From NCBI GenBank assembly GCA_903813345.2, contig CAIIXF020000001.1:1736001-1800000 (forward strand): DNA of 64,000 nucleotides, in the 5' to 3' direction. The notes below the pieces were generated by a model. The model was not told the origin of the DNA, made no database searches, and worked only from the letters and a program-made list of their open reading frames with translations. Each line of letters opens with the position of its first letter. The first letter of the stretch is position 1. Shown piece by piece: positions 23,700 through 32,600 of this stretch. The stretch is from Owenia fusiformis. Its lineage: Eukaryota. The position numbers were made by a program, and so were the translations under genes.

Positions 23700-26600
23700 T
23701 CAGACTCCATAGTGCGTGGCCAGCCTCTCCCGGAGTGGCAGCGGAAACTGGTCGGAAAATCTCTTCCAGTTTTCCTCTCCTACTTGGTTCTTAAAGCCAT
23801 GAAGAATCTACAATAAGGAAGAAGAAAAGCTGAAACTAAGATCAGATTGCAAGAAGTGTAAAGTTGAGCATGTAAGGTGGCATTGTTCAGAGTACGAATA
23901 CAGTATCAAAGACACAGAGTCTCATTAGGTAGAGAAGTATCATCATGACAAGCCAAATATGCTCTAATTAACAAATTATGATGGATAATCATTTTACAGG
24001 TTTAAAACAGGTTTGATCCAAACTTTAATGTAAGGTATTAGATCTGATCGCAATTTTGCGTACCTTGTAAAACATTTCTTTCAAATCAGGCTTCGGGTTT
24101 ACCCAGGATGCAACAGCATCACAAAAGAAAATGAAATCTTGTACGATTCCACCAGGATTCACTCCAATCATCAGACAGATGCCGCGGAACGCAGAGTCCT
24201 TCTCATCGTTGTCCCGAATGTTGCGGAGGGACGTACACCTAATGGAACACAGTGATATAATGTATAGAGTTTGGATAAGTTGGGGAGTAGGCTTTGATAA
24301 AGGTATTCACAAAGTAAAGGTTTATAATCCAACAACCTTTACACTCAACATTTGACAACATTACTACTGCAGAATGCACTCATAATACAAAGATTTTATA
24401 GAAATGATAAAACACTCAACATTTTGTTAATTTAAATGAAAAGAACATCTCTGCCCTTGTACAAAAACATAAATGGTATATGTATATAAAACTGAGTGTG
24501 TTGTACAAACATAGATAAACATGATTAAATTGTATGTATGTCTAATAAATAAAGTTGCAAGAGAAATAAATACACACCACTGACGTATGAACTGCTGCAA
24601 CAGTGGCGCCACCTCCTGGGGACACACTAAACCAAGCCGACCAATTGTAATGGCTATGTTACCATGGTAACAAGACGGGTAGCAAATAATGGGAGAAAAC
24701 AGAGAAAGACAACAAATCAACATAACATGTCAAGCAATGAAATAAATAATGACATATGGTCTAATGGAATATCCCAGAAACACAGAATCACCCTGGAAAC
24801 GTAAAGACAACAGAAAACAATGCATATTACAATTGAACATAAAACACTATTCATAAATGCATTATTTAGTATGTGCACCCTTTAAGTTCCCAGATGACAT
24901 ACCATGATATGGTATAAGGTTCTGGGATAAGCCATGTTTAATACTGTGTCTAGGCTAAGTGAACAGTCAGTGGGCTCTAGTGAGACAACGGTTACACAGA
25001 AGTAGCCCTGCTATAGTTTTAGACAGCTTAAGTAGATATGTTCACTCTAGGCAACTCAAGCAACTTAGGTAGAAAGGGCATGAGCCCACTACAGGTCCAA
25101 TATAAGATCATATACATCATATGTACATTGAGGAAACTTAACAGACAAAAGCATCAAGTGTGAAAAGGTATTATTGATCAATTCAATGTTTCTTTCCAAA
25201 GATAATATGTCGAATGCCTTTGCATTTGTCTGATTTTGTTGCCAAGTAAATTTTCTCAATTTTTTACTCTTATCCAAAGTGCAGTTTATCTCAAAATCAT
25301 TGATATGTCACAATACATTGGTAAAACAAATCATGCATTTTTTAATTGAAGAAATCATGATAAAATAATCTGATAATGGTATACAATCATATATAGCACA
25401 ACATGCCTTACAAGACTTATATTACAAAAGTGATGCTATGATGTCAGTGTTGTTACTAAGGTAACCTAGTAGGGTTGCTATAGAGACATTTACCTGTGTT
25501 TTCTAGGAGAGTTTTTGGTGTGTTTGGTCTGTTGATGATTTCTATCAGTTGATTTAAGACAGCTGTCACGTGTGGACCCATATCTTCTCCTAAACATAAA
25601 TAATAATTTCACACTGAGCTGTTGACTACTGAGGGCCAGTCACAAACAATGGTTGCTTCTCACAACTTCTCGGTGGTGACAAAAACTGACAAAATATTGG
25701 GTCTATGATCCATGAAAGATAGGTTGCTTTCATTGCACACAGGGTGTTAAGAAATCATATCATTCTGATGGCCTGATCAGAGTACGAATACAGTGTCATG
25801 GACCTCTGGGTCTCATCATATTAGAAAAGTATCATCACCTCAAGCCTGACTTATGGAATGTTTAAATTGATGCATCTAAAATCAATTTTGGGCTAAAGAC
25901 ATTATTAGGAAAGTAGATTCTACATGGGTTTATGAAGTACATACCCATCTGTATGGCTATCTCTCCAATGGACCACGTGGCATTGTTGCAAACTGAGATA
26001 AACTCGGGGTTCAAATTCTGCCCTAATATAGGCATGAAATCTGGGATGAACGGCTTGACATGCTGGAAACAGGCTTTTGTGAGGTCACCTAACAGAGCAA
26101 ATGAACTTTGCCGGACTTCAGCCATAGGATCCTAAAAAATGAAATAAAAGGTAGAGAAATATGTTTTGCATTGAAATAAACACCATAACATTCAATCTCA
26201 CATCATATTACTGACAATGAGTTAATAGTATTAAGGTGGTGTACTGATAGCAGTGACCTCCTCAGCAAGCAAAAGTACTAAGGAGAGCACTGGATAGTTC
26301 TGCCATACTACGCTGACGCAAACCCATAAAATAATTCACTTTTACATACCTGCATGCATTGGTAAAGCAGATTGAGAATGTTACTGCTGGCAACCAAAGC
26401 CTCAATGTGTTGTTCCAGTCCCTCAGCCAGACCACTGAGCAGATCCAGGGCAACAATCATGAAGTCCTTGTCTGGAGGGTCATACTGGTCTGGCGTTGTC
26501 ATGTTGTTCTAAAATACACAATCAGCTACGAATCACTACATGAATAAAACATTAGTCACCATAGCAACTCCAACTTTGAAATCAAGAAAAGTAACTCATT

Positions 26601-29600: not shown

Positions 29601-32600
29601 ATAATATTGATGAATCTGTGTAATCGCTACATACTTGTTGATATCATAAGCAACCATTACATAGTTGTTGATATCATAAGCAACCTTTACATATTTGTTG
29701 ATACTTTTGATGAATCTGTGCATTCAGGAACTAAATTGACTTCATTATAAACTTCAGTGAGAGAGTTCAAATTTCATCATCATGCACTGGTTTTCATTCT
29801 GTACAACAAGGTATATATAGTTTTATATGGCCAATATCCTTGTAAATAAACCAGTTAAAAAAATTTTACCAGTTGAAGCTGCCCATAACATATTTTCATA
29901 ATATATTTAATTAGCCAGCATATACAAATTCTTCCATGTTGTTATATAACAAACTTACTTAAGTTCCAGTCTGATAGAGTGTCATCATCTTCATCTTCAT
30001 CATCAGAATAGTCTTCCTGATTTTGCTGCAGAAACAATCATTTATTACACAATATAGTATAGCTTTAGTGAAGGTATATGAATACACTATAAAACACACA
30101 TATCTTTGTTGTCTCTCATACTTGTAGAATAGACCTATTGTGCTTTGAGTACAATGCATATTCAGAGGAACTGGTTGACTTCATGAGACTCAGTGAGAGA
30201 GTTCAAATCTCATCATTAGATGCATTTACTACCAAGCATAGATAAACATACAGCAGAATAGAAACAATGGCTCATGGGACTGATGTGAAAAATATTCCAC
30301 TTACAGGTGTTCCACTGCACAAGTTTCACTGTATTTGTCTCTATTAATGGTCTACTCACCCCATTGACCTGCTCCTCCTCTTGATGTTTCTGTGTATGCG
30401 CCTTTGCTTTATGGAAACGTGGCTTAATGTCTGTCTCCCTATCAGGTATCATATCATCTTCCTCCACATCACCCTGTATGGGAACACCATCATTAATCAT
30501 ACATTTTAGATAAGCAACAGGTTTGGGTTTTTTCTCCCGTTTTGAGAAATTTTTCAGCAGTTTCCTTGATAAATTATATTTCCATTAATTTAAACAACTC
30601 TTTCGAAGTTTAACCGAACACAACTACCAAACACATGATGTGAAGATTAGTAAATAATCTTGTATGGGCGGGAGAGTACAAACAAAAACTTCATGAAAAA
30701 TCCGCATCAAGACATATTTTGCATATTCAGTAGAACATTTGGCCTCATTTGTTACTCAGTGAGAGAGTTCAAGTCTCATCATTATATGCAATATTTCACA
30801 AAATGCAATTATTTTTTTGCTTCAATGTAAACTAACTTTAACACAACAGGAAGTTCCCAGGGATAGTTAATAATTACGTCAGACACGTGGGAGACCTAAT
30901 TAGCTGAAAATATGTTATTCCCGTGTCAGTTCGATTATTGATCAATTTTAGCATCTCCGTAGGCCATTATCACACTTAACAAGTTGCCTCAATAGAAACC
31001 TGGCTACAAGAATAGATATCTAGTTAATTAACTTGAACAAGTTTTTATAGTTCATATTATGAAAAATATACAGCTGATTATATCTACTTAAGCAATTCAC
31101 AATTATATCAATGAGAAACCTGTTAAGACTGAGAATCAATATAATATATGTATTAGAACTGAACAAGCCCTCAATATTCTATATCAGACTAGATATTGTG
31201 CACAATTTAATCCTAGGATATAATCCTCCCCAGGGGAATAAGCATGTTGCGCAAATCCACAAAGTGATTCTCCTAAAGCAAGAAGCATACCTTCAGCAGT
31301 ATAATGTCTATCTCAGAATACTTCATTCCTCTTACAAGCACAGGTACCAGTCTGTTGATATGTGGTGCTAAGGCCTCTTTACATATTGGCTGTTCAGCTA
31401 GGGCTAACCAGAACTCACAGGCCTCTAGGGCTACACCATCGTCAGGATCTTGGGTTCGCTGAAGCATATACTAAAACACAAATTCTTACCTGTAGAGAAG
31501 TTCAGTACATTATCAGTTATTTCTTTCTCAATTCATGTCTGCTGATGTATATATTCATCCAGAACACATGTTATTTAAAATAAAAACAGCAAATTACAGT
31601 TGCAAATCTAGTGAAACAGTCCAAACTGTGAAGGTAACATATCTTTCAAATGATATTTATTTGTAATCCAGAACTATTTAACACTACATTCCAAATCCTA
31701 CATTGTAATATTCTCCCAAAACACATTTTAAGATTATCTTTAAGTATAAATGTAATAGGAACAGTCAATGGTATTTTCATTGCATATTCAGAAGAACGTT
31801 TGACTTCATAAGACTCAGTGAGAGAGTTCAAATCTCATCATTATACGCAATAGTTGAAACACTGCTGTTAACTTAAATCATGGGCGATCAAGGGACCCAT
31901 GCTTAAATCAATGGTGAAATATGTGACATTTGCGTACACCAAGAATGTTTATTCAAAATGAAGTTTGCTTACATCAATGATATTATCAATGTGTGGCATA
32001 AGTCTATCCATGCGTACTTCCACCAACATAACGAGAGCCCTGGCGACATTCTTCCGCACTTCCGGATCTTCATCAGTGGCCAGGAAAAACAGACTCTACA
32101 ATTAAAAATATACTAAGTCCAGTAAACGAAGACAAAAACAGTTTATTAAAATATTTATTACTATTTATTGATTAATTCACGTAAATGCTCAGATTCATCT
32201 TTCCACATGAGGGAGCAAACCCTTTTCAGTAAGAGAGAGTTCTTTATCATCCTAGCATACATTACATCCAAGATAGTAGATTGGAAATAAATACTGACAA
32301 AGAATATTAGAAGCTCATCAGTATTGTAAGCTATTTTTCTTCCAATCTGTCTTTACAGAGAACGAACCAATCATTCAATATGATATGCCATGGATCACAG
32401 CACGTGGACATAAAATTCTTACCTCGATAAAGCCATCTATGTGGAGCATAAGAGCTTGTGTGCGGCTTATAATAAACTGGTTGACACAGGCTATGGCATG
32501 AGATCTGAAATGACATTACATATTTTGTCTTAATATACATGAATATATATATATATCTTTTATTGACTCTTTAGATGTCATATCATGACATATTAGTCCC

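Follow-up and report, generated by a model that had tools for sequence, protein, structure and literature searches.

The transportin gene and its intronic units

The window, by which we mean the whole stretch of 64,000 nucleotides (nt) of Owenia fusiformis DNA analysed here (assembly GCA_903813345.2, contig CAIIXF020000001.1, positions 1,736,001 to 1,800,000), carries a transportin-1-like (importin beta-2) gene on its minus strand at 23686..47696. The gene has 20 coding exons, a stop codon near 23700 and an extra intron in its 3' untranslated region (UTR). RNA sequencing (RNA-seq) defines the last fifteen introns of the gene, and 11 of these 15 each bear one lone unit that looks like a box C/D small nucleolar RNA (snoRNA). 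We consider it very likely that the Owenia transportin gene is a multi-snoRNA host, with 11 introns that each encode one sense-strand box C/D snoRNA.

Two exon translations identify the host. One, of 76 residues, matches Transportin-1 / karyopherin beta2 in the PDB (E about 2e-43). The second is 100% identical to the 947-residue protein P0001, an 'unnamed protein product, partial [Owenia fusiformis]', after which the next matches are the transportin-1 proteins of Capitella, molluscs, arthropods and others; the search gave 649 transportin relatives. Splice joints taken from the raw reads of three Owenia fusiformis RNA-seq runs show that the host pre-messenger RNA is spliced. There are 15 such joints between 23807 and 32423 (introns 23808-32422), supported by 61-292 reads per joint in each run, and at all 15 the plus-strand ends CT..AC read as GT..AG on the minus strand. 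The first mates lie nearly all on the plus strand, which fits a minus-strand messenger RNA and the usual type of stranded library. Exons 1-4 map further upstream of these joints by tblastn of P0001, at 47586-47696, 45215-45292, 43106-43363 and 33967-34101, and this gives the introns that bear units the numbers 5-12, 14, 16 and 19. The four introns of the 15 that have no unit are 13, 15, 17 and 18.

All units are encoded on the minus strand, and on the host strand their 5'-to-3' order is one U26 type, four U81, one U26, three U41 and two of a shifted U41 type. Unit 1, in intron 5 (32184-32258), is U26-like; it has the C box AGGAUGA, a guide GAACUCUCUCUU followed by A and the D' box CUGA, and a stem of -5.7 kcal/mol. 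The four U81-like units occupy the next four introns. Unit 2, in intron 6 (31780-31850), has the guide UUGAACUCUCUC, then A and the D' box CUGA (stem -10.3 kcal/mol). Unit 3, in intron 7 (30719-30791), forms 12-13 Watson-Crick base pairs (bp) with the stand-in large-subunit (LSU) ribosomal RNA (rRNA) introduced below (stem -8.4 kcal/mol), unit 4, in intron 8 (30155-30224), has the guide and register of units 2 and 3 (stem -7.2 kcal/mol), and unit 5, in intron 9 (29717-29787), is the most diverged copy, with the guide and register of U81 (stem -5.1 kcal/mol). Unit 6, in intron 10 (29131-29195; stem -8.8 kcal/mol), is U26-like again and is aimed at the same A as unit 1.

The U41-like units are unit 7 in intron 11 (28592-28667), with a degenerate C box GUGAUUA and a flank duplex of -7.7 kcal/mol, unit 8 in intron 12 (27920-28000), with an external duplex of -14.4 kcal/mol, and unit 9 in intron 14 (26696-26780), with a stem of -8.1 kcal/mol. 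All three share one guide, an antisense element UUGUAUUCGUACUG followed by U and then the D box CUGA. In the shifted U41 type the guide is 2 nt shorter at the box: unit 10, in intron 16 (25772-25844; stem -11.6 kcal/mol), has CUGUAUUCGUACU directly followed by the D box CUGA, and its paralogue unit 11, in intron 19 (23882-23952; stem -8.0 kcal/mol), has the same guide and register. The units lie 74-309 nt from the 3' splice site. An earlier note on this DNA had claimed 11 units on the host strand, one per intron, in the introns numbered above and in this order of families; all were found where it had put them, in RNA-seq-defined introns and at lengths of 65-85 nt.

The anatomy is that of box C/D snoRNAs, with the boxes, a terminal or external stem, and an antisense element of at least 10 nt upstream of D or D'. 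Nine of the 11 units have the C box RUGAUGA (AGGAUGA in unit 1 and GUGAUUA in unit 7), and the terminal D box is CUGA in all 11, as are the D' boxes. C box and D box stand 54-71 nt apart. There is one conserved antisense element per unit, directly upstream of a CUGA that is the D' box in units 1-6 and the D box in units 7-11. Box-adjacent stems in nine units range from -5.1 to -11.6 kcal/mol, and to -14.4 kcal/mol if units 7 and 8 are counted. Between units 10 and 11 the innermost stem pair shows a compensatory change, A-U versus U-A. The C box, CTGA D box and usually short terminal stems described in the earlier note are thus present, with the C boxes of units 1 and 7 and the stem of unit 8 as caveats.

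Such a concentration of units is not expected by chance. The 10-mer GAACTCTCTC occurs six times and GTATTCGTAC five times in the window, on the minus strand only and always within units. A generic scan (RTGATGA, a CTGA 45-105 nt further on and a terminal stem of at least 4 bp) returned 8 minus-strand matches, which correspond to 7 units and all lie inside the transportin gene, and 2 plus-strand matches elsewhere. This total of 10 on both strands compares with 50 block shuffles that averaged 0.7 matches and never gave more than 3. When profiles built from the units were run with nhmmer over the whole window, only the 11 units came out below E 1 (at E 1e-11 to 1e-20), so the empty introns hold no recognisable relics. 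Plus-strand C/D-like candidates at 9325-9406 and 56927-56995, as well as a weak snoZ267 match at 12436-12500, were set aside as noise; none has anchored rRNA complementarity of at least 9 bp.

The 3' end of the host gene calls for a comment on the protein record. The C-terminus of P0001 disagrees with the open frame and with the RNA-seq reads. In the last coding exon the frame stops near 23700, whereas P0001 changes frame after ...GFKNQ and continues into a 52/78-nt tandem repeat at 23115-23419. In the reads there is a further splice donor at about 23686, joined to sequence like 23419-23448, which is the 3' UTR intron. Adjoining tandem arrays occupy 22482-23419 downstream of the stop codon, one with a 49-nt unit in 13.3 copies (95% matches) and one with the 52/78-nt unit in 4-6 copies, and are probably in the 3' UTR. 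Tandem repeats also occur within introns. A 66-nt repeat in 6.1 copies (98% identity, 27161-27559) fills nearly the whole of the snoRNA-free intron 13 and has a depth of 0 in a DNA-like run, X1. Intron 2 holds a 27/54-nt repeat at 43444-43891 that is open in several frames on both strands, with no sign of host coding.

Guides, predicted targets and family assignment

Guide pairing was assessed on three complete eukaryotic LSU rRNAs (L018, L039 and L086) that served as stand-ins. They lie on metagenome contigs from unknown eukaryotes and were found via the 14-nt target motif, which picked 115 loci, most by chance; 6 of these had LSU ribosomal DNA motifs and 3 were confirmed by Rfam, as LSU_rRNA_eukarya at 3066-3148 bits. 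When anchored at position 2 upstream of the box, the guides of all 11 units pair over 12-14 bp with 0 mismatches in each of the three. The claim that these guides pair with two particular LSU segments is upheld in the canonical register in all three stand-ins.

The predicted targets, given in brackets, are opposite the fifth guide position. Units 1 and 6 form 12 Watson-Crick pairs that place this position opposite the A in GAAG[A]GAGAGUUC, at stand-in LSU positions 386-396. This is the SNORD26 register, the counterpart of Am389. Units 2-5 pair over 12-13 bp in the SNORD81 register and are aimed at the A that lies two bases further 3' than the U26 site, so that the predicted Owenia U26 and U81 targets, as in human helix 24, are adenosines two bases apart. 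Units 7-9 pair over 14 bp, including one G-U, and are directed at the U in CAG[U]ACGAAUACAG, in the SNORD41 register that corresponds to Um4276. Units 10 and 11 are not in this register: their 12 Watson-Crick pairs point to a C, that of AGUA[C]GAAUACAG, which lies 2 nt 3' of the U addressed by units 7-9, and two extra pairs at the 5' end of the shifted guide make up for the missing 3' bases.

Four 28S sites are predicted from these pairings, namely counterparts of human Am389, Am391 and Um4276, plus the C two bases 3' of the Um4276 U. The first three fit the literature. Human SNORD26 guides 28S Am389 (PMC13507652), human helix 24 carries Am389 and Am391 (PMC8351944), the chicken U81/Z23 homologue has 28S A413 as its target (PMC2653536), and SNORD41B, a U41 isoform, targets 28S-Um4276 (PMC1636440). 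The ribose-methylated C (Cm) of units 10 and 11 is a prediction only.

Second guides upstream of the terminal D box were considered for units 1-6 and rejected, as their pairings of 10-13 bp have 1 mismatch and up to 5 G-U pairs, and the sites are inconsistent across copies. A second site for the U81-type guide of units 2 and 4 occurs in one stand-in, L018, at LSU position about 1778 (locus about 1801), where the guide pairs over 18 bp with AGAG[A]GAGTTCAAATCTCG. It is absent from L039 and L086 and is probably an expansion-segment coincidence.

An Rfam search at the level of E-values, covering 22500-34500, matched all 11 units with box C/D families on the minus strand, and the best family is SNORD26, SNORD81, SNORD41 or ceN114 at 10 of the 11. 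At unit 9, SNORD53_SNORD92 (21.2 bits) is just above SNORD41 (20.8 bits). The SNORD26 model, with a gathering threshold of 44 bits, gives 41.8 bits for unit 6 (E 1.4e-6) and 24.2 bits for unit 5, for which no SNORD81 match is listed. SNORD81 (gathering threshold 50 bits) gives 35.5 bits for unit 3 (E 7.9e-4), 26.7 bits for unit 2 and 22.2 bits for unit 4. SNORD41 (gathering threshold 41 bits) gives 31.1 bits for unit 10 (E 9.8e-3), 24.9 bits for unit 7, 20.8 bits in partial matches to units 8 and 9, and 20.6 bits for unit 11. Unit 1 is best matched by ceN114, with 29.0 bits against a gathering threshold of 44 (E 0.026), and SNORD26 scores 22.2 bits there.

All of these scores are below gathering, and therefore the units are not formal Rfam members of SNORD26, SNORD81 or SNORD41. 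The Rfam alignments place guide and box in the register of the family consensus, with no shift in units 1-9 and a 2-nt gap before box D in unit 10, and units 2-5 carry UUGAACUCUCUCACUGA, which is the SNORD81 consensus stretch. Judged from sequence, the putative snoRNAs carry the functional signature of the families, the same guide in the same register. The assignment to SNORD26, SNORD81 and SNORD41 made in the earlier note therefore stands as far as best matches by E-value go, and fails on a strict reading, by which there is no support at the gathering level.

Probable duplication, register shifts and known snoRNA hosts

Within families the units are 70-89% identical (unit 5 is 73-77% identical to the other U81 copies), versus 45-59% for their 80-nt flanks and 50 +/- 4% for random sequence. 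Since the flanks are at random identity, the duplications must be old enough for the intron sequence to have become saturated. In multiple alignments the invariant columns are restricted to boxes and guides, the guides are identical within each family, and every copy retains guide, boxes and stem despite the saturated flanks. The alignments also locate the differences between related types. What separates U26 from U81 types is an indel of 2 nt (UU) that lies between the guide and the D' box; U41 and shifted U41 are separated by an indel of 2 nt (GU) after the guide and before the D box. Each indel moves the target by two nucleotides. SNORD26 and SNORD81 both belong to Rfam clan CL00050, as would be expected if they had a common origin.

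Cis-duplication into other introns of one host has been described for SNORD58, with four copies in RPL17 (PMC2817437), and is described as dominant in chicken (PMC2653536). On the evidence of the sequence, the Owenia array is best explained by cis-duplication of snoRNAs into other introns of the transportin gene. Paralogues in neighbouring introns and unalignable flanks fit the intron-to-intron duplication that had been proposed, and the near-invariant guides and diverged flanks on which that proposal drew are borne out by the identities given above.

Anatomy, placement, paralogy, pairing with stand-in rRNA and host splicing are observed; from these we infer expression, assembly into small nucleolar ribonucleoproteins (snoRNPs), methylation and an order of duplication. 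By established snoRNA biology, the spliced intron would be debranched and then trimmed by exonucleases to the snoRNP core, which Snu13, Nop56, Nop58 and fibrillarin would form at the C/D kink-turn together with the terminal or external stem. Pairing with 28S rRNA would be through the antisense element that precedes D' (U26 and U81 types) or D (U41 types), and fibrillarin would methylate the ribose of the nucleotide facing the fifth guide base, counted upstream from the box. The array would grow by repeated copying of a snoRNA into further introns of its host gene, and two 2-nt indels beside a box, UU for U26/U81 and GU for U41/shifted U41, would shift the register and with it the target.

The U41-like units invite comparison with human SNORD41/SNORD41B (RF00588, TNPO2). 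In both, the core GUAUUCGUACUG is immediately upstream of box D, with units 7-9 in the consensus register, and both Owenia and human have a transportin-type host with multiple copies in different introns. The human case has been termed intragenic duplication, and SNORD41B is tabled with the host TNPO2 (PMC1636440). The hosting of U41 by human TNPO2, as stated in the earlier note, is confirmed by that table for the SNORD41B isoform. The differences are that Owenia has five copies rather than two, that units 10 and 11 lack 2 nt before box D, and that the Owenia units, at 20.6-31.1 bits, score below the gathering threshold of 41 for the SNORD41 family.

As in SNORD26 (RF00087) and SNORD81 (RF00136), the Owenia guides, GAACUCUCUCUU-N-CUGA and UUGAACUCUCUC-A-CUGA, are upstream of D' and in the consensus register. 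Unlike in these families, the two types are interleaved in one protein-coding gene in Owenia, in 2 + 4 copies, with highest scores of 41.8 versus 44 bits and 35.5 versus 50 bits. Human SNORD81 lies in GAS5. The host of human SNORD26 is the non-coding SNHG1 (PMC13507652), and the chicken U81 homologue also has a non-coding host (PMC2653536). Unit 1 shares with the nematode ceN114 (RF01618) both the unusual C box AGGAUGA and the guide GAACUCUCUC. However, the consensus register of ceN114 is U81-type, with the guide directly followed by ACUGA, whereas unit 1 is U26-type, and its score is below the gathering threshold of 44.

One snoRNA per intron, with paralogues spread across the introns of the host, is also the arrangement in SNHG1 (8 snoRNAs), in Drosophila Uhg1-8 and among the four SNORD58 copies of RPL17. 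Classic dense hosts are mostly non-coding and serve many specificities, whereas the Owenia host is a protein-coding import receptor with 11 units and four specificities. The Drosophila Me28S-U3344a gene lies in Stt3A (PMC6770171), and its equivalence to U41 could not be established. Among the 115 metagenome loci picked by the 14-nt LSU motif there was no U41-like snoRNA with both boxes and no transportin fragment. The available main texts of PMC3511168 and PMC13736004 do not mention TNPO, SNORD41, SNORD26 or SNORD81, and that of PMC2817437 does not mention TNPO or SNORD41.

Other repeated elements were recorded in the window. A dispersed repeat lies in intron 4 of the transportin gene at 32329-32850, where RNA reads in the bin 32329-32600 fall on both strands and many loose ends occur at 32543-32598. 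Rfam gives a weak match there that resembles a transfer RNA (tRNA), at 32746-32844 on the minus strand with 19.7 bits, and ARAGORN finds no tRNA; the repeat is possibly a tRNA-derived short interspersed nuclear element. Weak matches to microRNA families lie on the minus strand, to mir-3149 at 53177 and 53757 and to mir-2804 at 54323 and 54685, each at about 24 bits and far below gathering. The regular spacing of the matches over 53177-54764 suggests a repeated hairpin-forming element with a period of about 570 nt.

Alternative readings and significance

So, are all eleven units working snoRNAs? Several points weigh against this. Rfam at gathering thresholds returns 0 matches in the whole window, and the guide pairing was established only on metagenomic LSU rRNAs of three unknown eukaryotes. 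For methylation of the C addressed by units 10 and 11, a search of the literature under Cm4278 or Cm4308 found nothing relevant. Read depth is 0 in the bins wholly within introns 7, 9, 11, 12 and 14 in the three RNA-seq runs; this is weak evidence, because 151-nt paired complementary DNA libraries would not retain 70-nt non-polyadenylated RNAs. A G-to-U change gives unit 7 its C box GUGAUUA, and this copy is the foremost candidate for impairment. In unit 8 a box-adjacent stem is lacking, and an external stem of 8 bp, GGGCCUAA/UUAGGCCU, lies some 12 nt beyond the boxes. External stems can support the processing of snoRNAs that lack a terminal stem. Finally, the predicted sites are served by 4, 2, 3 and 2 copies, and such redundancy leaves room for silent ones.

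If only one copy per family (or fewer) worked as a snoRNA and the others were decaying intron-borne duplicates, then the 4, 2, 3 and 2 copies per target, the C box of unit 7, the stem of unit 8 and the divergence of unit 5 (73-77% to the other U81 copies) would all be accounted for. We nevertheless consider this improbable. The flanks have fallen to 45-59% identity, at the level of random sequence (50 +/- 4%), yet every copy has an identical guide, intact D and D' boxes and a stem, all of which neutral copies of such age should have lost, and the stems of units 10 and 11 differ by the compensatory A-U versus U-A change. That the units are a snoRNA-derived retroposon, or some other dispersed repeat that is frequent in the transportin gene by chance, is far less credible still. 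snoRNA retrogenes are known in mammals (PMC1802619) and the transportin gene does bear other repeats, but all 11 units are in the sense orientation, one per intron and within 8.4 kb, with none elsewhere in the 64 kb. Their aligned flanks show neither a poly-A tail nor shared sequence. In the DNA-like run X1 the depth over unit bins is 0-29, which is single-copy-like, compared with about 10157 for the bin 32329-32600, which holds a true repeat. A related question, which takes the transportin gene as a snoRNA host, is whether its U41 link is shared with human TNPO2 by descent. From the two species compared, human and Owenia, we regard the transportin-U41 host link, which the earlier note called ancient, as probably inherited rather than convergent. 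Convergence, in which a housekeeping gene with high expression would have acquired a mobile snoRNA independently, seems unlikely, with arguments on both sides. The pairing of snoRNA and host is reported to be poorly conserved even among vertebrates (PMC13736004), U26 and U81 are in non-coding hosts in human and chicken (PMC13507652, PMC2653536), so that hosts do change, and the comparison is of two species only. On the other hand, one of the three families here matches its human host, which by a rough estimate would have a chance of about 1 in 100 if hosts were random among a few hundred typical host genes.

A fuller history that builds on the inherited link is offered tentatively. The transportin-U41 pairing may stem from the last common ancestor of annelids and vertebrates, and the annelid gene may then have become a duplication nursery, in which two independent 2-nt slips made neighbouring sites, with a lineage-specific 28S Cm and with U26 and U81 in the original arrangement.

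The kinds of RNA, their targets, the rule of one snoRNA per intron and cis-duplication itself are already known, and the arrangement is unusually dense and otherwise ordinary. What appears to be new are the eleven annelid genes, the density with which units of only four specificities fill a protein-coding gene (11 of 15 consecutive introns), and the predicted extra Cm site. Our search of the literature found no paper on Owenia snoRNAs and none on a transportin gene as a multi-snoRNA host. The locus would add eleven unannotated guide RNA genes for Owenia, a reference species in spiralian genomics, for which four 28S ribose methylations are now predicted. If the host link with TNPO2 is inherited, it would be a rare case of deep conservation of a snoRNA-host pairing, in contrast to the turnover reported within vertebrates (PMC13736004). 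Should the pairing date to the annelid-vertebrate ancestor, it would be among the oldest links of a snoRNA to a host gene outside the ribosomal protein genes. Within a small stretch of natural sequence, the locus also illustrates how a modification site could arise beside an existing one, through cis-duplication and then a shift of the register by 2 nt.

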